Shown here one piece after another: positions 1-48,042 of a stretch of 64,000 bases of DNA. Below the pieces are notes generated by a model. The model saw only the letters and a list, made by a program, of their open reading frames with translations. It ran no database searches and was not told where the DNA came from. How positions within the stretch are numbered: the stretch's first letter is position 1; each line of letters starts with the position of its first letter. The stretch is from an uncultured Candidatus Saccharibacteria bacterium. GTDB lineage: Bacteria > Patescibacteriota > Doudnabacteria > UBA920. The DNA lies in NCBI GenBank assembly GCA_964436545.1, contig CAYTCJ010000003.1, positions 3,168 through 67,167 on the forward strand. The letters are read 5' to 3'. The translations under genes were made by a program, and so were the position numbers.

Positions 1-673
1 GTTTTTAGGTAAGCCGTTAATTACTCATTTATTGGGCAGAATTGCCCGAATTGCAAAAAGTCAAAAACCCATAATTGTGGTGGGTTTTTTGGCGGACAAA
101 GTTAAGCAGGCTCTAGGGACTAGGTATGAATATGTGCTCCAAGCCGAGCAGTTAGGCACAGCTCATGCGGTGAAGTGCGCAAAAGATGCGGTGGATGCCG
201 AGAATCTGTTAGTGCTATATGGCGACATGCCGTTTATTACCGAAGAAAGTTTAAGAAAATTTATTCGCATGCACCACGATAACCAAGCTCAAATTAGCAT
301 GCTCACCACCAAAGTGCCTAATTTTCAAAAAGAGTATGCGGGCTTTGAACATTTTGGGAGAATTGTGCGCAGTCCCTCGCTTCTCGCCAAGGGTAAAGAC
401 ATAGTTAAAATTACGGAATTTAAAGACGCCAGCGAAGCCGAAAAGGCCATTAAAGAAATTAACCCCGGAGTATACATGTTCAGCACAGCGTGGCTGTGGC
501 CGAACCTTAAAAAAATTAAAAATAAAAACGCGCAAAAAGAATATTACTTAACCGATATTGTGGAAATTGCCATTGCCCAAAAAGTAAAAATTTATAGTTT
601 GGAAGTCTCGCCCAAAGAAGTTATGGGGATTAATTCACTTGAAGATTTGGAATTGGCGGAAAAGGCTTTTTAG
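1..673 (+). CDS. Sugar-phosphate nucleotidyltransferase, GlmU N-terminal-domain-like (5' partial, continues upstream of window)
   Basis: Frame 2 is open from nt 2 (FLGKPLITHLLGRI...). The QLGTAHAV motif matches the GlmU/RmlA-type NTP-transferase fold. No left-handed beta-helix acetyltransferase domain follows, so this is the pyrophosphorylase domain only. Confidence 0.7.
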   Translation, partial: FLGKPLITHLLGRIARIAKSQKPIIVVGFLADKVKQALGTRYEYVLQAEQLGTAHAVKCAKDAVDAENLLVLYGDMPFITEESLRKFIRMHHDNQAQISMLTTKVPNFQKEYAGFEHFGRIVRSPSLLAKGKDIVKITEFKDASEAEKAIKEINPGVYMFSTAWLWPNLKKIKNKNAQKEYYLTDIVEIAIAQKVKIYSLEVSPKEVMGINSLEDLELAEKAF

Positions 674-932
674 GTTTTGGGTTTTTTAAGATTAGGTTTT
701 AGGTGTAAAAGATAAGTGTTGGACTGCGAAGTCAATTAATTTTAAAAAATAGTGGATATTTACCCAGCAAGTCATTTTTAATTTTCATATAACTTTAAAT
801 TTTGGTTATCAATGAGTTTGTGATTAATGTTTGTGGGTAAGTAAAGTTGTACTGCTGGGTCATACTCTGTTTCCGCATAGCTTAGCGGGATTTTTTTATT
901 GCCTTTTTAAGTAATTTGGAGTACTATTTATA

Positions 933-959
933 TATGATAAAGTATGATAGTATCATACT
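933..959. promoter_or_regulatory. Palindromic operator-like site with TATGATA half-sites: TATGATAaagTATGATAgTATCATAct
   Basis: A perfect 9-1-9 palindrome AGTATGATA-G-TATCATACT at 941-959 plus an extra direct half-site at 933-939. The same palindrome core recurs at 2616-2632. Confidence 0.55.
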
Positions 960-1281
960 TTTTTGTTCTTTCCAGTTTGGAATGGCTCGTCTCCCTACGG
1001 GAGACAGGCAAGTTTTGGTAGCAAAATTGTTCTGATATTGCAAGTAAAGCAATTTTATTATTGTCATGCTGAATTTATTTCAGCATCCAGTTGACATATA
1101 GATTCTGAAACCCACCAGAGGTTGGCAGGCAAGTTCAGAATGACAGAGGAAATTTATTTTCTTTATATTGCTATACAATGATAGGTGTTTTGCTCCCCAA
1201 GCTTGCCTTGCCTTGGTTCTATCCCATGGACTTTAAGGCAGGGTCATTCCTCCAAATCTCAAAAGGGGGAGTGAATAGAAA

Positions 1282-2466
1282 TTGAAGAAGGAGAAGGAAA
1301 TGCGGAATTTTATAGCAGAGAGAATTAATGCCGTCCCCCCTTCAGGGATACGGCGTTTTTTTGATATTATTGCTACCATGCCCGAGGTGATCAGTCTCGG
1401 GGTGGGAGAGCCTGACTTCGACACCCCGGAGCAGATCGTATCCGCGGGTGTTCAATCCCTCCACGCTGGCCGGACTCACTACACTTCCAACTACGGGACG
1501 ATTGAGTTGCGTCGGGCGCTCGCGGATCATCTCGATCGTCGTTACGGCGTCCAGTACGACCCACCCACGGAGATCCTGATCACCGTAGGCGCGTCCGAGG
1601 CCGTGGACCTGGCGCTTCGGGCTACCTGCGACCCGGGCGATGAGGTGATTCTCCACGAGCCGAGCTACGTCGCTTACGTTCCCGCGATCGTGTTCGCCGG
1701 CGGCACGGTCGTGCCGGTCGCCACGTGCTTCGAGGACGACTTCGCGCTGGACCCGACGGCGGTGGAGGCCGCGATCACGCCGAGGACAAAGGCACTGTTC
1801 CTGGGCTACCCGTGCAACCCGACCGGCGCGGTATTGCCGGATGCCGTGCAAGACGAGCTGGCCCGGATCGCCGAGCGCCATGACCTGATTGTGTACAGCG
1901 ACGAGATCTACGACCGCCTGGCCTACGGTAGCTACCGCCACCGGGCGTTCAGCTCGCTGCCCGGGATGCGCGAGCGAACGATATTGATGGGCGGCTTCTC
2001 CAAGGCTTACGCGATGACCGGCTGGCGGGTCGGCTACGTCGCGGCACCCGCCCCGATCCTCGAGGGGATGCTGAAAGTCCACCAGTACGGGATCATGTCG
2101 GCGTCCACCGTCGCCCAGGACGCGGCGCTGGCCGCGCTCCAGGCCGGCGAATCCGCGGTCGTCTCGATGGTCGCCGAGTACGACCGACGTCGGCGCTTGT
2201 TGGTCGACGGCCTCAATTGTATCGGCCTCGAGACCTTCGAGCCGCGTGGCGCGTTCTACGCGTTCCCGCGGATCACCTCGACGGGTCTCACGTCCGACGA
2301 GTTCACCGAACGGCTCCTGACCGAGGAGCACATCGCGGTCGTCCCGGGGAGTGCTTTCGGTCCGTCGGGCGCTGGGCACGTGCGCATGTGCTATTGCACT
2401 GCGTACGAAAAGCTCGAGGAGGCTTTGCGCCGAATTGAGCATTTCGTACGTAAAATTAAGGGCTAA
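1282..2466 (+). CDS. PLP-dependent aminotransferase class I/II (aspartate/aromatic aminotransferase-like); strongly high-GC gene body
   Basis: 394 aa. The N-terminal stretch (GVGEPDFDTP...) and the SFSKAYAMTGWRVGY PLP-lysine region are typical of AspC-family enzymes. GC is roughly 65% versus a background under 40%. The first ~20 and last ~25 codons are AT-rich. Confidence 0.85.
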   Translation: MKKEKEMRNFIAERINAVPPSGIRRFFDIIATMPEVISLGVGEPDFDTPEQIVSAGVQSLHAGRTHYTSNYGTIELRRALADHLDRRYGVQYDPPTEILITVGASEAVDLALRATCDPGDEVILHEPSYVAYVPAIVFAGGTVVPVATCFEDDFALDPTAVEAAITPRTKALFLGYPCNPTGAVLPDAVQDELARIAERHDLIVYSDEIYDRLAYGSYRHRAFSSLPGMRERTILMGGFSKAYAMTGWRVGYVAAPAPILEGMLKVHQYGIMSASTVAQDAALAALQAGESAVVSMVAEYDRRRRLLVDGLNCIGLETFEPRGAFYAFPRITSTGLTSDEFTERLLTEEHIAVVPGSAFGPSGAGHVRMCYCTAYEKLEEALRRIEHFVRKIKG

Positions 2467-2615
2467 ACGCCCGGCCTTCCCCCGCGCTTGCCGGCGCTGG
2501 GGGCGGGAAACCATTTTCTCCTAACAAACCCAAGAAGCGGAAATGCACCTAGAGGTTTTTAGCCTACCAGCTAAGAATTTTTAGGAGCTTTCCGCTTCTT
2601 CATTTTTTTTGAAGA

Positions 2616-2632
2616 GTATGATACTATCATAC
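2616..2632. promoter_or_regulatory. Palindrome GTATGATA-C-TATCATAC immediately upstream (4 nt) of the RHH-NTase start codon
   Basis: A perfect 8-1-8 inverted repeat with the same core as 941-959. It sits where an autoregulatory operator of the downstream RHH-domain protein would be expected. Confidence 0.55.
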
Positions 2633-2636
2633 ATAT

Positions 2637-3566
2637 ATGCGAGAACGACTTACCATTACTTTAAAACAAGACTTGTTAGAGGCTTTAGATGCCAATATTG
2701 ATGGCGATAAACTTAGAAACAGAAGTCATGCCATTGAATATTATTTGTCTAAAAGTTTAGGGCAAAAAGCTCTTAAAGTGTTAATTTTAGCCGGAGGCAA
2801 ACCGGTAGATTTTGGTAAAGCTCATGGCGGAAAATTACCCAAGGCAATGGTAAAAATTGCGGGTAAGCCACTCTTAGAACAAACTTTGCTAAAATTAAAA
2901 TCTGCCAAATTTAAAGATATCATTATTTCTCTGGGTGAAGGGGGTAAAACTATTAGAGACTATTTTAAAACCGGCGAAGCTTTAGGTTTGCATATTCAAT
3001 ATATTGAACAAGACAAGAGTGTTACCGGGCCGGCCAGCGCCCTCCTTCAGGCAAAAAAATGGGTAGACAATAGTAATTTTTTGTTAATTTATGGAGATGT
3101 GCTTTCGGATATAGATTTTTCTGATTTAATCCAATTCCATTCTTTAAACAAACCCTCCATTTGCACTATGACTTTAACTTCCACTGAAAGCATTGGGCTT
3201 TGGGGTTTGGCCAAACTGCAGGGCAGTCGGGTGGTGGAATTTGAAGAAAAACCGCAAAATCCTAAAACTTTTTCTCGGCTCATTAACGCCGGTATATATT
3301 TAATGGAACCGGGAATTTTTAAATACATTTCACCCCCTCCCAGCCTCCCCCCTCCCTCCTACGCCAAGGCTTCGGAGGACAGCCAAGGGGGAGGAATAAA
3401 GGTGGGGGGAAGTAAATTAGAAAGTGGAATTTTGCCTCGGCTCGCGGAAGAAGGAAAGTTATATGGGTATGTGTATGAAGGTTTATGGTTAGATATTAGT
3501 AATAGCGCAGTGTATAAACAAGCCATAAAAGAAATGAACAAGAATGACAAAAATGAACAAGAATGA
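2637..3566 (+). CDS. Ribbon-helix-helix (CopG-like) DNA-binding domain fused to NDP-sugar pyrophosphorylase (mannose-1-P guanylyl / glucose-1-P thymidylyltransferase-like)
   Basis: The N-terminus MRERLTITLKQDLLEALDANIDGDKLRNRSHAIEYYL has a strand-helix-helix RHH pattern. It is followed by LILAGGKPVDFG...GKPLLEQTL, the G-rich NTP-transferase signature loop. The gene also contains an in-frame GC-rich palindromic insert (see 3333-3410). Confidence 0.7.
   Translation: MRERLTITLKQDLLEALDANIDGDKLRNRSHAIEYYLSKSLGQKALKVLILAGGKPVDFGKAHGGKLPKAMVKIAGKPLLEQTLLKLKSAKFKDIIISLGEGGKTIRDYFKTGEALGLHIQYIEQDKSVTGPASALLQAKKWVDNSNFLLIYGDVLSDIDFSDLIQFHSLNKPSICTMTLTSTESIGLWGLAKLQGSRVVEFEEKPQNPKTFSRLINAGIYLMEPGIFKYISPPPSLPPPSYAKASEDSQGGGIKVGGSKLESGILPRLAEEGKLYGYVYEGLWLDISNSAVYKQAIKEMNKNDKNEQE
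3333..3410. repeat. GC-rich palindromic element inserted in frame in the nucleotidyltransferase gene
   Basis: Sequence ccccctcccagcctcccccctccctcc...ggaggacagccaagggggagg...ggtgggggg has C-run and G-run inverted symmetry. It encodes a Pro/Gly-rich stretch (ISPPPSLPPPSYAKASEDSQGGGIKVGG) that interrupts an otherwise ordinary low-GC gene. Confidence 0.6.
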
Positions 3567-3623
3567 CAAAAATCAGCGGAAATTAATTTTGTCAATTTTG
3601 TCATTTATTTAATTTTTGTCATT
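3534..3623. repeat. TGACAAAAAT inverted/direct repeat module (copy A)
   Basis: A 19-nt tandem duplication of atgaacaagaatgacaaaa is followed by three inverted TTTTGTCA(T) copies. A near-identical module lies at 55801-55891. Its TGA supplies the stop codon of the upstream gene. Confidence 0.7.
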
Positions 3624-3656
3624 AAGCCATAGAGGCACATTTTTTATAAAAAATAT

Positions 3657-4679
3657 ATGAATAAAAGAATATCAGCAAACTCTAAAATACGCATTGCACT
3701 TAATGGTTTGGGTAGAATTGGCAGGATTTTTTTACGCCAAGCTTGGAATAACCCAAAGTTTGAAATTGTAGCTTTACATAGCCGTTCAGGTTTAGAGATG
3801 TATGCCCATTTATTAAAGTACGATTCCACCTACGGGGTGTGGGAGAAAGCGGTAAGCGTGAAAGGTAATAATTTAGTGATTGCCGGGAAGGTTTTTCCGT
3901 TTGTGAGCGATGAAGGCGGTTTGCCTTGGGGGGATTTAAAGGTAGATATGGTAGTTGATGCCACGGGGAGATATACCAAAAAAAGTGAAGCTACTAAACA
4001 TTTGGCGCAAGGGGCAAAATATATGGTATGCACCGCGCCCATGGACGATGCGGACGAGACTTTTGTGTTTGGTGCCAACCATAAAACTTTCAATCCCAAA
4101 AAGCATAAAATTATTTCGGCCGGCAGTTGCACTACCGTGTGCAGTACTTTAAGTTTAAAAGTGTTAGAAGAAAATTTTGGCGTTAAGCAAGGGGTAATTA
4201 ATACCGTGCATGCGTTTACGGGCGACCAAATGCTCTTGGATGGGAGCCATAAAGATTTAAGACGCGCGCGCGGAGCCAGCCAGAGCATTATCCCAACTAC
4301 CAGTGGTGTATCTAAAACCATTGTGGGGCTTTACCCTCATTTGAAGGGAAAAATTTCCGCGTTATCTTTGCGGGTGCCGGTGCCTGACCCTTCGGTGGTG
4401 GTGTTAAGCGCGGAGCTAAAAACCGCAATTACCGAAGCGCAGTTACGCCAAGCTTTTATTCAGGCTTCCCGTAATAACTTAAAAGGTTTATTGGCGGTGA
4501 GTGAATTGCCTTTAGTATCCGTGGATTTTAAAGGGAACAGTCACGGGGCTGTGGTGGATTTATATAGTAGCAGTCTGGTTAATGAAAAGTTAATTAATCT
4601 TTTAGCTTGGTACGATAACGAGTGGGGTTATGTAGCGCAAACCATAAAGCTTTTAGAGTACTTGGCCAGTAAAATTTAA
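3657..4679 (+). CDS. gap: Glyceraldehyde-3-phosphate dehydrogenase, type I
   Basis: 340 aa with the NGLGRIGR Rossmann motif, an SAGSCTTVC catalytic-Cys motif and a WYDNEWGY C-terminal motif. Confidence 0.9.
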   Translation: MNKRISANSKIRIALNGLGRIGRIFLRQAWNNPKFEIVALHSRSGLEMYAHLLKYDSTYGVWEKAVSVKGNNLVIAGKVFPFVSDEGGLPWGDLKVDMVVDATGRYTKKSEATKHLAQGAKYMVCTAPMDDADETFVFGANHKTFNPKKHKIISAGSCTTVCSTLSLKVLEENFGVKQGVINTVHAFTGDQMLLDGSHKDLRRARGASQSIIPTTSGVSKTIVGLYPHLKGKISALSLRVPVPDPSVVVLSAELKTAITEAQLRQAFIQASRNNLKGLLAVSELPLVSVDFKGNSHGAVVDLYSSSLVNEKLINLLAWYDNEWGYVAQTIKLLEYLASKI

Positions 4680-30160: not shown

Positions 30161-31069
30161 TTGAATCAAATCGAAGAAGAAAGGAGCAGGAGGGTGAAAG
30201 TATCAGAACTCTACGTTTACCCAATTAAATCGTGCCGTGGAATTGGGCTTTCGGAAGCTCGAGTCAACGCGCGCGGAATTGAACACGACCGGGAGTATAT
30301 GGTCATAGACGCCGATACGGGCATGTTCGTAGCCCAGCGGCAGGACAACGGTCTCGGCATCGAAATCAAGAGCATGTGCCAGGTGAAGACGAAACTCCAA
30401 CCCATGAACTTCATTCACATCTGGGCACCGGAAATGAGGGGCGTGCACATTAACCCCAAACTGGCCGGTAGCGAGATGCGGGTTCAGGTCTGGAAGAACG
30501 GCGGCATCCTGGCTTATGACATGGGCGACTTTTTGGCCGATTGGTTTACCAAGTTCCTAAGTCGCGAACGGCCTGGCAAGTATCGTCTGGTGCGTATGAC
30601 CGACGACTTCATCCGGCGGGCCAAGATCGGTGACGCTCAAGTGGGTTTCGCCGACGCTTACCCGTTCATGGGGATCGGCTGCAGCGCACTCGGGGAACTC
30701 AACCGACGGTTGGCGGTCAAACGCCATCCCGAACTTCCCATGAACCGCTTCCGGCCGAACATCGTGTTTGGCGACGCTGCTCCGCACTCCGAAGACCACA
30801 TGAAGGTCATCAAAATCGGCGACGAGGGCGGCGTAATCCTCGACGGTATGACGCTATGCGAACGCTGCCCCTTGCCCTGCACGGATCAGGAAATCGCTGT
30901 GCGGACCAAGGAACCCAGCGCCACCTGGGCGGAATATCGTCGCGGTCGGCACATCGGTATCACCGATCCGACAAAACAGGGAGCTGTCTTCTTCGGGCGT
31001 AACTTCAACCACCGCGGACCCGGTTACATCAAGGTCGGCGACTACGTGGAGATTCTGGAATCGGACTAG
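30161..31069 (+). CDS. MOSC-domain protein (MOSC N-terminal beta-barrel + MOSC; YcbX/mARC-like), high-GC
   Basis: VSELYVYPIKSCRG is the MOSC_N signature. The more likely start is the GTG at 30194, preceded by aaggagcaggagg. GC is about 60% against a background under 40%. Confidence 0.75.
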   Translation: MNQIEEERSRRVKVSELYVYPIKSCRGIGLSEARVNARGIEHDREYMVIDADTGMFVAQRQDNGLGIEIKSMCQVKTKLQPMNFIHIWAPEMRGVHINPKLAGSEMRVQVWKNGGILAYDMGDFLADWFTKFLSRERPGKYRLVRMTDDFIRRAKIGDAQVGFADAYPFMGIGCSALGELNRRLAVKRHPELPMNRFRPNIVFGDAAPHSEDHMKVIKIGDEGGVILDGMTLCERCPLPCTDQEIAVRTKEPSATWAEYRRGRHIGITDPTKQGAVFFGRNFNHRGPGYIKVGDYVEILESD

Positions 31070-31170
31070 CACTCGAGGCGTGGGCCGTTGACCTTAACCG
31101 GCAACGATTCACGCTTCTCATCTTAGCAAATCAAGGATTGGTTTATTGAGATGAGAAAAGAAGGAGGAGT

Positions 31171-31437
31171 ATGTTAGCAATCGCACGCTTAATGGTGCAT
31201 ATGCACCACCACATTTGGGCGATTCTTGTGGTGTTTCTTGTAGGAGTCGGAGCTTTTGTTCTCGGCTCTTACATCCAAAACGCAATTGCCCGCAACGTGG
31301 TTTTCGGTATCGCAATCATCGCTGTGGCGTTTGTCATGGCGACGGGCGCTTCTATCGGCCCTATGGACGACTGGCAGCACCAGCACGGAAGCTGCCTGCT
31401 CGAAACAATCGACCAAATGCAGAGAGGTAAAAAGTGA
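31171..31437 (+). CDS. Small hydrophobic membrane protein, His-rich N-terminus, high-GC
   Basis: 88 aa with two predicted TM helices. It is translationally coupled (ATGA-type overlap) to the downstream amidase. Coding status is moderately likely. Confidence 0.45.
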   Translation: MLAIARLMVHMHHHIWAILVVFLVGVGAFVLGSYIQNAIARNVVFGIAIIAVAFVMATGASIGPMDDWQHQHGSCLLETIDQMQRGKK

Positions 31438-32117
31438 AGCTACGCAATCTGTTGTTCGTGCTCATGGTTCTGTCTGTCGCTTTCGGGTGCGCCAATGCGC
31501 AGTCGCCGCAAAAGCAGCCCGAATGGCAGGCCAACTGGTTCCCCATTAACTGGGAGGCGGAGAAGATTGAGAAACAAATCGTCACCGATACAATCTTCAT
31601 CCACCATACGGCATGGGAACCGAACGCCACATGGCAGCGGCTGTCCGAGGAGCAGAAAAAACGGCTCTACGATGCCCGCTACGCCATCGCCGACAAAGAC
31701 CCGTTCGTGCAAGGCGAGCCGTCGCACTCGGGTCACTATCGCTTAGTGGACGGCAAATTGGTGGAAGTGTTTTACGCCTACCACTGGATAGTCCGGCAAG
31801 ACGGTAAGGTCGAACGGCTTCTGGATGACCGCGAAGTCGGCTGGCACGCCGGCAACTGGGCGGAGAACATGCGGTCAGTGGGTATTGTTTTCGATGGCGA
31901 CTACAGCAAAAAGCCGCCGCCGAAGAAAGCGCTCAAGGCAGCAGCCAAGCTCATCCAGCAATACGTCCAGCAGTATCCGACAATTACCCGCCTCAAGGCA
32001 CACCAGGACGTGCGCAAGACCGAGTGCCCGGGTGCATGGTATCATGCGGCAGACAAGCACGGGCAGACCGGCCGGGACCGACTGCTCAAATACGCAAAGC
32101 TAATATTGTCCGAGTAA
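31434..32117 (+). CDS. N-acetylmuramoyl-L-alanine amidase, Amidase_2/PGRP (T7-lysozyme-like) family, secreted; high-GC
   Basis: Signal peptide. IFIHHTAWEP, GWHAGNWAENMRSVGIVFDGDY and HQDVRKTECPG match zinc amidase_2 catalytic motifs. Confidence 0.75.
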   Translation: MKLRNLLFVLMVLSVAFGCANAQSPQKQPEWQANWFPINWEAEKIEKQIVTDTIFIHHTAWEPNATWQRLSEEQKKRLYDARYAIADKDPFVQGEPSHSGHYRLVDGKLVEVFYAYHWIVRQDGKVERLLDDREVGWHAGNWAENMRSVGIVFDGDYSKKPPPKKALKAAAKLIQQYVQQYPTITRLKAHQDVRKTECPGAWYHAADKHGQTGRDRLLKYAKLILSE

Positions 32118-32137
32118 GTGTTCGGACTAACTGTGGG

Positions 32138-32173
32138 GCGCACGTTCAAGCTGGACGTGCGCTTCTTCTTTTT
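32138..32173. terminator. Rho-independent terminator (gcgcacg-ttcaagctgga-cgtgcgc-ttcttcttttt)
   Basis: A GC-rich 7-bp stem plus a T-rich tail directly after the amidase stop. Confidence 0.7.
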
Positions 32174-32356
32174 CCATATAAGCCTTTCTAATACGCTGCA
32201 CATATCGGAGCCATAAGAAATTCATTCCATTTTGGGATGGATTTTTTATTTCTAGATACTGGTATGAGAAGTTTATCCGCCTCTGGCGGAAATCCCGCCT
32301 ACAATAATTTGAATTGCTTTAGCAATTCATAGTGGAAGTGCCATAAAACTTTATGG

Positions 32357-39868: not shown

Positions 39869-40975
39869 CTATATAAAATTTTTGGATTCTGCGCCCACAG
39901 CTTCTTGAATGTGGTGGTAGTTGTCTTGTTTTAAAAGTTTAACTAAATCGTAATTAATTTCGCCAATCAGTTGGGGACCTTGGTAGATCATACCGGTAAT
40001 CAGCTGAATTAAAGACGCGCCCAATTTAATTTTTTTATACGCATCTAAAGCATTAAAGACTCCGCCACAACCAATTATCAATTTTTTTCCGTGGTAAAAA
40101 TTATAGACTGTGGCAATTAATCGGTTGGTTAGGGCTTCTACAGCCTTGCCGGAAAAACCGCCTTTGCCCACGTGGTTAAATACATTATTTTTGGTTAAAT
40201 TGGCACACACAAAACCATCTACGGGGTAGGTGGCACAAACCGTGAGGATTTGAGTGAGCTGGGCTTCGGGTAAATCGGGCGAGAGTTTAATAAAAACCGG
40301 TTTGGGTTTAGGGAGTTTAAAAATTTCGGTTAACAATAAAGTTAAATTTTCCGGTTCGGCAAAAATGGGTTTTTCTTCACAGGTGTTAGGACAGCTAATG
40401 TTAATGGTAATATAGTGCCCCAAATCGTGAAAGATGTGGTAGCTGGTTAAGTAGTCACGAATGCCGTTTGCTACGTTAGAGGTGGTGGGGGAATTGGTTT
40501 TAGCCAAACTAATTCCCACGGGGAAAGTAAAAGTTAAGGGTTTTAAAAATTGGTAAATGGCCGGAGCGCCAAAATTTTTAAGCCCGTAATTGACTCGTAA
40601 AGTTTGTTGTTCGGGTAAACGCCATAATCTGGGTGGCTGGTTGCCTTGATAGGGTAGCGCGGTAAGGGATCCAACTTCTTCAAAACCAAAACCCACACTG
40701 GGTAAAATTTGGGTGAGTTTAGCGTCTTTGTCAAAGCCCGCAGCCAGCCCAATGGGGTTATTAAACCGGATGCCTAAAAGGGTTTGCTCTAAGGCAGGGT
40801 GAGTGTAGGAGAAGCTCTGTTTGGTGAGGGCTGTTAAAATTTTTGATTGGCCGGCCAAAAACCCAATCTTTCCCACCCAATCATGCACGGTTTCCGGATC
40901 AAACAGAAAGAAGAGTTTTTTAATTAAGTGTCTGTACCAAAAGCCAAAAATTTTAGCTCTTAAAAACATATACAA
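39869..40975 (-). CDS. pyrD: Dihydroorotate dehydrogenase (quinone), class 2
   Basis: N-terminal membrane-association helix, FNNPIGLAAGFDKDA and the C-terminal GGV/IIGxGG FMN-binding motifs. Confidence 0.85.
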   Translation of the reverse strand: MYMFLRAKIFGFWYRHLIKKLFFLFDPETVHDWVGKIGFLAGQSKILTALTKQSFSYTHPALEQTLLGIRFNNPIGLAAGFDKDAKLTQILPSVGFGFEEVGSLTALPYQGNQPPRLWRLPEQQTLRVNYGLKNFGAPAIYQFLKPLTFTFPVGISLAKTNSPTTSNVANGIRDYLTSYHIFHDLGHYITINISCPNTCEEKPIFAEPENLTLLLTEIFKLPKPKPVFIKLSPDLPEAQLTQILTVCATYPVDGFVCANLTKNNVFNHVGKGGFSGKAVEALTNRLIATVYNFYHGKKLIIGCGGVFNALDAYKKIKLGASLIQLITGMIYQGPQLIGEINYDLVKLLKQDNYHHIQEAVGAESKNFI

Positions 40976-47081: not shown

Positions 47082-47121
47082 CAATCAGTAGTCAGTAAAT
47101 CAGTAATCAGTAGACAGCGAA

Positions 47122-47613
47122 TTAGTAGTTAGAAAATAAATGAAATTGCCGGACCGAGCGCCCCGTGGGGGGCGAAGGTCCGGCTTTGCGTTGCGCGCTG
47201 TCTTTTTTTGCCGGAGGGCGCGCCACCTCCAGCAAAACCGATTTGAACTCTTCTACTGCCTTTTGGGCAGCCGGGACACGTGCCCCTTCCAAAATGAGCT
47301 CAAGCTGATAAACAGCACGAGCTCCGTCCGGCCGGAGTTCAATCCGGAATCGTCGTTTTTTAACTTCCACGACATGGACGGTTATGCTCAGAGCCTTGCC
47401 CGATTCAACATCGGGATTTGACTTGAGCCATGGAACCAAGGTTTCCGACACCGCGCCGTAAAGGACGCGGTAGTCCTCGCCGGCTTCGTCCGGCGGAACT
47501 TTAGGCAGGAGTTCAACCTGCCGGTCGGTCGCCCCCTCAAGAGAGGGTATAAAATAGCAAGAAATAAAAAAAAGACCCACCCTCAATAATATCACCAAAA
47601 ATTTCCTCATCAT
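47122..47613 (-). CDS. Secreted hypothetical protein, high-GC body with AT-rich signal-peptide region
   Basis: 163 aa. The signal peptide is encoded at low GC and the body at about 60% GC. Low-complexity AATCAG/CAGTAG repeats flank it (47085-47135, 47950-48035). Confidence 0.45.
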   Translation of the reverse strand: MMRKFLVILLRVGLFFISCYFIPSLEGATDRQVELLPKVPPDEAGEDYRVLYGAVSETLVPWLKSNPDVESGKALSITVHVVEVKKRRFRIELRPDGARAVYQLELILEGARVPAAQKAVEEFKSVLLEVARPPAKKDSAQRKAGPSPPTGRSVRQFHLFSNY

Positions 47614-48042
47614 TCTCTCCTTTTAGGAAGTTCGCGTCCGTTTTGCCTCTGTGGCCAAGAACGCTTAAAAGAGAGTATAAAAGAAAAATTAAAAAATGAC
47701 AAAAAATAAAAAAATCGCGCTTTGGACAATTACCAAAGGCGATTTGGACTAATTAAAATTAGTCCTCCTATTTTATCCGGCTCCCTCAGGCGAAGGAAAT
47801 GCTAAAACCCACCCTTGGGAGCCGGAACCCTGTTCAGCAAAAGTAGAACAGGGCCACAATTAATTGATAGTATAAAGCTGGTTTGCGATTAAAGCAAGGC
47901 GCTGGTTTTTTATTGGCAGATAGTGGTATAATTGTTAGGTTATTGATTGTAGGTGATAAGTCGGTCAGCAGACAGAAATTAGCTAATCAGCTGACAGCTA
48001 ATCAGCAGTCAGCTGATCAGCAAGTAAGTTGAAGAAAATTAT

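Follow-up and report, generated by a model that had tools for sequence, protein, structure and literature searches.

The aminotransferase locus and its donor

We describe a GC-rich class-I aminotransferase gene in a 64,000-nucleotide (nt) stretch of contig CAYTCJ010000003.1, here called the window, from an uncultured bacterium that belongs to the candidate phyla radiation (CPR). The window has a mean GC content of 41% and holds core genes for GAPDH, enolase, pyruvate kinase, PPDK, DnaG, RpoD, and PBP1. Homologs of the gene downstream of the aminotransferase carry the names Patescibacteria group or Candidatus Doudnabacteria, and the recipient is a Patescibacterium (CPR) near Doudnabacteria with a small genome. 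A literature search for the accessions of the sample and the contig gave no match. The gene order around the aminotransferase is conserved in the clade and runs from a glmU-like gene through the aminotransferase, a predicted fusion of a ribbon-helix-helix (RHH) domain with a sugar-phosphate nucleotidyltransferase (RHH-nucleotidyltransferase), and GAPDH to an inositol monophosphatase (IMPase). Among the 60 open reading frames (ORFs) of the window, the GC content at third codon positions (GC3) centers on a median of 0.39, and no native gene goes above 0.48; standing outside this range are the aminotransferase (0.80), a MOSC gene (0.70), an Amidase_2 gene (0.73), and, weakly, a gene at 47122 (0.55). 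The aminotransferase gene and the sequences that directly adjoin it divide as follows:

1203..1299, plus strand: conserved 5' leader, with hairpins P1 and P2 and then an unpaired Shine-Dalgarno (SD) region
1300..1384, plus strand: 5' arm, codons 1-28, AT-rich (GC3 0.39), of common descent with the relative L002
1385..2395, plus strand: GC-rich core (GC3 about 0.85-0.9), of the Limnocylindria type
2396..2466, plus strand: 3' arm, codons 366-388 and the stop, of lower GC content, common to L002
2460..2507, plus strand: conserved GC-rich 3' untranslated region (UTR), with a GGGC/GCCC hairpin around the stop (2460-2472) and a GC hairpin (2475-2507)

The start of the aminotransferase is probably ATG 1300 (MRNF...) rather than TTG 1282, because AAGGAG lies just upstream and both the Logan gene call and all homologs agree; this ATG sits directly behind AAGGAGAAGGAA (1288-1299), the unpaired SD region. 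An exact look-up of the ORF of 394 amino acids (aa) gave no match because the product begins at ATG 1300. The enzyme is of class I/II (PF00155, E = 1.6e-74, residues 35-385 of the 394-aa ORF) and contains the Schiff-base/pyridoxal phosphate (PLP)-lysine motif GGFSKAYAMTGWRVGY, of the class S-K-x-[FY]-x-x-x-G-x-R, in which S234, K235, and R243 are invariant in an alignment with 11 homologs. Its whole length aligns with structures of the aromatic aminotransferase of Pyrococcus horikoshii (1DJU and 1GD9; E about 1e-115 to 4e-115), with residues 5-385 set against residues 2-384 of the structure, and its short N-terminus is therefore normal for the family; the extra ~16 N-terminal residues of the donor proteins described below were lost in the window gene. 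The best NCBIfam equivalog, PRK07682 'aminotransferase A' (with PRK07683), scores 494 bits, below its cut-off of 620, and the substrate specificity is therefore not assignable. In the full-length match and the PLP-lysine motif the window enzyme resembles the P. horikoshii enzyme and PRK07682/PRK07683, differing from the latter in its score under the equivalog cut-off, and its substrates may be those of an aromatic/aspartate-type class-I enzyme.

In 60-nt windows along the locus, the GC content is 0.42-0.47 at 1280-1399, jumps to 0.58-0.78 at 1370-2419, dips to ~0.50 at 2390-2479, and then reaches 0.63-0.67 at 2450-2539, past the stop codon; the stretch 1385-2515 stands at 60-75% GC against a background of 41%. 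The gene as a whole has a GC content of 0.64 against 0.41 for the window, with 0.65/0.47/0.80 at the three codon positions, and its first and second positions (GC1 and GC2) are donor-like too. Within the gene, the middle has a GC3 of 0.85, from which both the first 28 codons, at 0.39 (Fisher p = 2e-7), and the last 25, at 0.56 (p = 9e-4), differ. The island that the original prediction, made from the letters of this stretch, had proposed here is confirmed by these profiles.

The aminotransferase is 83-88% identical at the aa level to Limnocylindria/Chloroflexota proteins, whose genomes have ~70% GC. The best 120 protein matches are 82-86% identical, several of them named Candidatus Limnocylindria. 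In species-representative genomes, the matches of 80-84% come from Limnocylindrales, 'Chloroflexia', or Chloroflexota metagenome-assembled genomes (MAGs), where the loci have 70-73% GC and the donor-type genes a GC3 of 0.86-0.97, and other phyla reach at most ~62% identity. The window gene is nested among these Limnocylindrales/Chloroflexia genes. It thus combines the four marks of a xenolog, namely a deviant composition, nesting in a distant donor clade, a patchy presence (the relatives L004, L087, and L088 hold unrelated genes in the same slot), and linkage to recipient DNA. On this evidence we place the origin of the aminotransferase in Limnocylindria-group Chloroflexota, which bears out the high-GC donor that had been predicted from composition; the nearest homologs are themselves GC-rich.

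Different histories of the gene ends and the core

The diverged relative L002 (GCA_021733325.1), which comes from a different sample and assembly, has this gene at the corresponding locus, with a diverged sequence but an unchanged GC profile. Both genes have the N-terminal truncation (MRNF), and their first ~25 codons have AT-ending synonymous codons in common, such as CCC CCT TCA in place of the donors' CCG CCG TCC. C366 and the ..K-I-K-G/D ending (..KIKG*) are likewise common to the window and L002 and are not found in the donors. In the core, the two genes part. Over residues 46-360, L002 ranks 69th of 119 by identity to the window core, and the nearest matches are P0041 and P0026 (88%) for the window and P0029 and P0060 (88-89%) for L002. 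Bootstraps make the window and L002 nearest neighbors in 80-88% of replicates at the ends and in just 2-3% in the core; by segment, L002 is the nearest neighbor in 85% for the 5' arm, 80% for the C-terminus, and 2.5% for the core. The branch patterns of three taxa also differ between the ends and the core (Fisher p 2e-8 to 2e-4). Because three taxa yield branch lengths only, we used quartets and a calibration by mutation spectrum. At the ends, quartets that join the window with L002 against two donors number 17-27 versus 0-3 for the alternatives (~20:1:1), and in the core the three topologies are about equal (~30:30:20), with L002 leaning to L007 and the window leaning to L003, L006, and L009.

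The mutation spectrum appears to be the most telling point for independent imports of the two cores. At four-fold degenerate sites, the cores of the window and L002 differ by G<->C changes at 29-30% and by GC<->AT changes at 22%, which matches the spectrum of window-donor and donor-donor pairs. The adjacent native nucleotidyltransferase gene, which spans the same host divergence, shows 6% and 35%, respectively, and a vertically inherited pair of genes of another aminotransferase type (type C, described below) shows 12% and 38%. A spectrum so similar to that of the donors implies that the differences arose in GC-rich genomes before the transfer, and that the two cores therefore entered separately.

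AT-shifted sites grade inward from both ends of the gene, and the AT-rich 5' arm covers ~28 codons in the window against ~45 in L002. As read from the codon alignment, the 5' crossover in the window would lie between codons 28 and 32 (~1384-1395), at the LGVGEPDFDTP motif, and the 3' crossover between codons 365 and 366 (~2395), right behind GGGCACGTGCGCATGTGCTA and probably within the GHVRMCY motif; GGGCACGTGCGCATGTGCTA in the window is identical to L003 at 20 of 20 positions. Taken together, the segment-wise comparisons support a mosaic aminotransferase whose ends and core have different histories, and the recombination in situ at the gene ends that had been proposed earlier agrees with ends that group with L002 and a core that does not. 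The single acquisition suggested by the whole-gene neighbor-joining (NJ) tree was overturned by the same analyses.

A refined form of that single acquisition deserves to be weighed, although we consider it unlikely: one transfer into the common ancestor of the window and L002, followed by amelioration that depended on position, so that the ends turned AT-rich before the split and the core changed slowly. The whole-gene NJ tree pairs the window with L002, the shared derived changes concentrate at the ends, and a star-like core fits a short stem lineage. Selection for an open initiation region and for weak structure near the stop would be the driver. Donor-like codons in the 5' arm would indeed pair with the SD/ATG region, shifting the predicted free energy of positions -20 to +40 from -4.8 to -15.6 kcal/mol and the unpaired probability of SD to ATG from 0.72 with the real codons to 0.36, and in these folding models selection at the 5' end is a plausible contributor to the AT-rich codons. 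MOSC, the first gene of a second GC-rich island in the window, is likewise AT-rich at its 5' end. The core, however, has the donor-like spectrum given above rather than that of the native gene, and its GC3 still stands at 0.85 in the window and ~0.78 in L002 though the native four-fold sites differ at 47%. Furthermore, the AT-rich arm ends at different codons in the two genes, and the gradient of AT-shifted sites runs over ~90 codons, which is too long for an effect of translation initiation.

One gene position with several unrelated aminotransferases

The same position holds other aminotransferases in other members of the clade. L004 is the closest relative found, with a GAPDH region 90% identical in nt to the window; L087 and L088 came from a scan of metagenomes for the leader motif. 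The flanking genes of these three are 74-90% identical in nt to those of the window. L090 and L091 are more distant, with a downstream protein 64-71% identical and synteny kept. Four types, all PF00155, occupy the slot in one leader/3' UTR context: type A in the window and L002, type B in L004, type C in L087, and type D in L088. They are 22-34% identical pairwise, have no nucleotide similarity, and have a GC content of 0.54-0.64 in hosts of ~0.40. L004 aligns with the window over 817-1012 and 1201-1302 and again from 2460 on, and from ATG to stop it holds an unrelated aminotransferase of 53.5% GC. L087 and L088 agree at 98.97% over 4,088 nt of the downstream flank and at 96.5% in the leader, but the coding sequences (CDSs) between these flanks are unrelated both to each other and to those of the window, L002, and L004. 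A fifth type, E, lies at the same position in L090 and L091 and is 44-48% identical to a protein annotated as an alanine transaminase. At least five non-orthologous aminotransferases are therefore found at this position.

The junctions coincide with the ends of the ORFs. In the alignment, the 5' leader is kept up to the ATG and the 3' flank is kept from (A)AGGGCTAA, which gives the last Gly codon and the stop in types A, B, and C and lies directly behind the own stop codon of type D. The last 9 nt of the window gene, AAGGGCTAA (2458-2466), correspond to the end of the displaced resident gene; type C genes natively end with AAG GGC TAA/TGA. What the displaced gene contributes is limited to the ATG and two or three codons at the far end. 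The N-terminus encoded by the AT-rich 5' codons, IAERINAVPPSGIRRFFD, is that of the donor family itself, which runs counter to the earlier suggestion of a fusion to a resident N-terminus.

Type C, which is alanine-transaminase-like, is best read from the alignments as the gene resident in this context of leader and UTR. Every homolog of it with at least 53% identity starts with M[KR]xI[ND]LGLGSP and most of these end with ..KG; the next homologs are at most 38% identical. Those of the close homologs whose contigs were read (L087, L093/L094) sit in the CPR slot. In L093, a 60% relative, the type C ortholog lies behind a recognizable P2 hairpin, ends with AAG GGC TGA, and is followed by a related 3' UTR. 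On this reading, types A, B, and D displaced it in frame, keeping the ATG and the last codons. The 3' UTR (2460..2507) lies behind all four CDS types as well as in L093 and is therefore resident sequence, not donor DNA. Type C is itself GC-rich, with ~60% GC and a GC3 of 0.63-0.68 in hosts of 40-42% GC (L087 658-1737; L093 about 3000-4110); 53% of the four-fold sites differ between the orthologs of L087 and L093 with a native-like spectrum, which suggests a GC-rich equilibrium specific to the gene. Where the conserved start would lie in the L093 type C gene (~2985-3000, ..AAA ATT AAA ATA ATA AAT CTC GGA..), there is neither ATG nor GTG nor TTG, and the gene may start at ATT or ATA; the start given by the gene caller is 30 codons too late.

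ORF-precise junctions in four unrelated genes, different alleles in two 99%-identical strains, and a stop codon in the loop of a conserved small hairpin could also be produced by cassette exchange, in which an integron-like site-specific recombinase would swap promoterless aminotransferase cassettes through sites in the leader and the 3' UTR. The slot does resemble integron cassettes in that a promoterless ORF is exchanged at a fixed site under resident expression signals. However, no integrase, transposase, or other recombinase was called beside the slot in the loci read with their flanks covered, where the neighbors are the glmU-like gene, the nucleoside triphosphate (NTP) transferase, GAPDH, and IMPase. 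Unlike attC/attI pairs, the two flanks (5' leader and 3' UTR) have no similarity to each other, and no attC-like repeat is common to both; the G.U pairs in both leader hairpins suit an RNA structure more than a site in duplex DNA; a single gene, and no array, occupies the slot; and the replacement of the type-A core resembles homologous rather than site-specific recombination. We therefore regard cassette exchange as quite improbable.

A native gene that never underwent transfer, in a locus kept GC-rich by codon selection or by biased gene conversion at a recombination hotspot, is a highly improbable explanation. All five aminotransferase types lie 12-20 GC points above their hosts, and type C, whose close homologs all have the slot termini, keeps its GC3 of 0.63-0.68 over a deep divergence. 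Against this, type A is nested among the Limnocylindria proteins at 83-88% identity, is just 22-28% identical to the other slot types, and is donor-like in GC1 and GC2; a GC-favoring force could add to the pattern for type A but not replace transfer, and for this type the phylogeny refutes a native origin. Finally, the chimeric assembly or bin contamination that the original prediction had left for consideration, in which high-GC Chloroflexota reads would be joined to a CPR contig in a conserved motif, draws on a 5' GC boundary that lies inside the gene beside the strongly conserved GEPDFDTP motif, and is refuted, with a practically negligible probability, since the Logan contig L001 from a second assembler (run SRR11567520) is 100% identical to window 1-2885 (2885 nt) across both GC boundaries, L086 from the same run holds the neighboring genes that come next, the island is embedded in host sequence on both sides within one NCBI contig of 134,891 nt, L002 shows the same architecture independently, and the AT-rich ends encode the same protein family in frame.

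Flanking elements, other islands, and proposed history

The remaining features around the slot are the following:

32-673: glmU-like gene, the upstream neighbor
871..900, plus strand: intrinsic terminator of the glmU-like gene, a stem-loop and then a T run, kept in L004
942..958, without strand: palindrome 1, GTATGATAgTATCATAC, promoter/operator-like, upstream of the aminotransferase
977..1022, plus strand: conserved block with the hairpin GTCTCCC-tac-GGGAGAC, ending in CAGGCAAG
1013..1200, plus strand: variable spacer, ~190 nt in the window, ~65 nt in L004, and of different sequence in L002
2534..2610, plus strand: long-stem intrinsic terminator, a hairpin (2534-2598) and then a T run, matched in a terminator scan
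2616..2632, without strand: palindrome 2, GTATGATAcTATCATAC, promoter/operator-like, 4 nt upstream of the ATG of the next gene
2637..3566, plus strand: predicted RHH and sugar-phosphate nucleotidyltransferase (PF00483) fusion

The block at 977..1022 is nearly invariant in the window, L004, and L002, and its surroundings vary. The spacer, which lies between two conserved upstream blocks, holds the best sigma-70-like match (1140-1169). In the leader, P1 pairs 1206-1214 with 1235-1243 and P2 pairs 1244-1253 with 1265-1274; both hairpins hold G.U pairs and thus form on the plus strand only, and P2 is kept in L093 with changed bases. The leader is kept up to the ATG in five lineages with four CDS types and is unique in the window. 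No Rfam family matched the leader or the 3' UTR at the gathering score, and nothing credible appeared at E <= 10 in 674-2700. We do not class the leader as a riboswitch, since its folding energy is unexceptional (z = -0.86) and its covariation is limited by sequences that are too similar. A leader peptide from the small ORF at 1231-1290 was rejected, because a 1-nt indel in L002 and an early stop in L087/L088 destroy that ORF. In the alignment of the 3' UTR, compensatory changes occur in 7 of the 44 predicted pairs, all of them in the long-stem terminator. In L002 (about 500-560) and L090 (about 3870-3925), the region upstream of the aminotransferase holds a hairpin-forming repeat, GGGAGGCGAAAGTTAAAAAG...CCCCCACCCTTGC; such repeats may be intergenic elements specific to the clade.

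The window has exactly two copies of the palindrome GTATGATAnTATCATAC, one at 942-958 and one at 2616-2632, against a chance expectation of 0.01. Two copies do flank the aminotransferase, as had been noted in the original prediction, but a link to the transfer does not hold: palindrome 1 overlaps a promoter-like match with the -10 element TATCAT and is kept upstream of the aminotransferase in L004, L087, L090, and L093, whatever the type, and palindrome 2 doubles as a -10 region. Palindrome 2 is also present in L004, L005, L087, and L088 and overlaps the ATG of the ortholog in L090. Of the three copies in L090, the first follows a TTGACG -35 box ahead of the aminotransferase, the second precedes a small ORF, and the third lies over the downstream ATG. 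Target-site duplications or terminal inverted repeats were rejected on the retention beside other aminotransferase types and on the third copy in L090, and we read the palindromes, from their positions, as promoter/operator-like sites and not as insertion scars. The small ORF, GC-rich and of 62-73 aa, lies between the aminotransferase and the RHH gene in L090 (5433-5786) and L091 (5414-5635) with its own palindrome copy; the subclade of the window does not have it.

The N-terminus of the RHH-nucleotidyltransferase matches RHH_1 (PF01402) at residues 4-39 with 20.4 bits, just under the cut-off of 20.5 (E = 4.9e-4), and NikR (TIGR02793) at residues 4-46 (E = 1.8e-4), and its homolog P0255 has PF01402. 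An inverted repeat lies at its own promoter and a second copy lies upstream of the aminotransferase, both conserved in the clade, and the protein is a candidate binder and regulator of the palindromes. The gene has no SD sequence, and its mRNA is probably leaderless; in outline, this would be a regulator fused to an enzyme, autoregulated and without a leader, and it is conserved in the clade. In L002 alone, a BrnT toxin/CopG antitoxin pair (2897-3443) lies between the aminotransferase 3' UTR and the nucleotidyltransferase.

Two further islands had been grouped with the aminotransferase:

30161-32170: island 2, 57% GC and GC3 0.70-0.73, with MOSC_N+MOSC, an 88-aa membrane protein, and a secreted Amidase_2
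47122-47613, minus strand: island 3, a 163-aa secreted protein of no family, 53% GC

Of the 58-65% GC claimed for all three gene bodies, the value holds for the aminotransferase (0.64) and not for islands 2 and 3, and the AT-rich 5' end ascribed to each is significant in the aminotransferase and in MOSC (p = 1e-3) and not in the membrane protein, the amidase, or the 47122 gene. MOSC probably starts at GTG 30194, and its best library representative is 67% identical; the Amidase_2 has a signal peptide. Island 2 ends in a terminator-like hairpin (~32137-32175) and is probably foreign. The low-complexity repeats reported beside the 47122 gene are real: CAGT/AATCAG direct repeats, one at 47085-47132 and the other at 47965-48021, agree at 73% over 48 nt. 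They enclose a segment of ~880 nt with the 47122 gene and its upstream region and could mark an insertion. A weaker CAGT/AATCAG patch lies at ~39951-39991.

We propose the following history for the slot, and we consider the account as a whole fairly probable. The resident type C gene would have given way, in frame, to a class-I aminotransferase of the aromatic/aspartate type that came from Limnocylindria-group Chloroflexota. The incoming gene would have retained the resident palindrome, 5' leader, SD sequence, and ATG at one end and the resident AAG GGC TAA, 3' UTR, and terminator at the other, and with these signals kept, the foreign gene would be expressed under resident control. The outer ~28 and ~23 codons would descend from this older type-A copy, having drifted or been selected toward AT, and the AT-rich 5' codons would also keep the ribosome-binding site unpaired. 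A core of ~1 kb (about 1385-2395) would have come in at a later time through homologous recombination with a GC-rich donor's DNA, with crossovers probably in the most conserved motifs, LGVGEPDFDTP and GHVRMCY, and independently of the import that gave L002 its core. The foreign DNA probably entered by natural transformation; Saccharibacteria have been shown to be naturally competent and to carry out homologous recombination (PMC10633639), and horizontal gene transfer into Patescibacteria is widespread (PMC12455944).

Several observations weigh against this account. No near-identical donor core was found, the best among the sampled donors being 88% identical in aa (P0041, P0026), the four-fold sites of the window core are 45-52% identical to the donors with DNA, and synonymous sites are saturated against all sampled donors; that the core was imported later than the ends is therefore an inference. 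The 'very recent' acquisition of the original prediction is not supported on the same facts, and neither is it by L002, where a flanking native gene is just 74% identical in nt and the type-A gene has the junctions seen in the window. The quartet signal of the core is star-like and does not positively split the window and L002 into donor subclades; at the protein level, just 11 sites discriminate two donor groups, with mixed assignments and in too small a number to assign the cores; and 15 shared derived sites are left in the core. Long CPR branches can distort nearest-neighbor ranks, and the G<->C argument presumes that the native mutation spectrum holds for the aminotransferase gene. In addition, the ~60% GC of type C may point to a GC-favoring force specific to the locus, and the exact joining of four unrelated genes at ATG and GGGCTAA is unexplained.

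Xenologous displacement in situ is a concept from the comparative genomics of mosaic operons. The slot follows this pattern, in that a gene of equivalent function from a distant lineage replaces the resident in place and the neighbors stay. It differs in a precision that reaches the start codon on one side and the final two or three codons on the other, with the resident leader and 3' UTR reused, in its repetition (at least five types, four in one context), and in its polymorphism between 99%-identical flanks. The mosaics of pbp2x and penA in Streptococcus and Neisseria arise by transformation and homologous recombination with diverged donors. Like the window gene, they have resident ends, an imported core, core origins that differ by lineage, and breakpoints within the CDS. 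In the window, however, donor and recipient belong to different phyla ~30 GC points apart, the homology arms would be the remains of an earlier foreign copy, and a selective agent is not known. In replacement flexible genomic islands, of which the loci for O-antigen and glycosylation are examples, one site can hold unrelated gene sets of equivalent function. They resemble the slot in their sharp boundaries, conserved flanks, and unrelated alleles among close strains, and the neighbors of the slot are likewise sugar-nucleotide enzymes; the slot differs in holding a single class-I aminotransferase instead of a multi-gene surface cluster and in boundaries that are ORF ends. The new element, as we read the compared loci, is a single aminotransferase position with frozen regulatory flanks that is refilled repeatedly with unrelated genes. 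The term for xenologous gene displacement is used in PMC9425974.

The locus provides a cross-validated case of inter-phylum transfer from Chloroflexota to Patescibacteria, and ORF-precise gene displacement in situ is unusual. The mosaic of ends and core would record homologous recombination with DNA ~20% diverged and ~30 GC points away, and bears on how competent CPR cells use foreign DNA. The leader, the palindromes, and the putative RHH-nucleotidyltransferase fusion form an uncharacterized and directly testable regulatory unit. The identity of the host is the main open question for most CPR, and the Limnocylindria are a candidate partner or host lineage for this uncultured Doudnabacteria-like bacterium. 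We further put forward, as a speculation in which we place little confidence, that the slot is a plug-in position for expression, made up of the conserved leader, the start codon, the GGGCTAA hairpin at the end, and the 3' UTR, in which episymbiotic Patescibacteria repeatedly install aminotransferases from the bacteria they live on, under diversifying selection and through a specific joining mechanism. If this is true, the content of the slot would record the host lineage, here of the Limnocylindria type and refreshed more than once, and the ORF-precise junctions would reflect that specific mechanism instead of chance illegitimate recombination. For the biology of these bacteria, the locus shows that a streamlined genome can hold one metabolic gene position in constant turnover within a regulatory shell that is frozen to the nucleotide.

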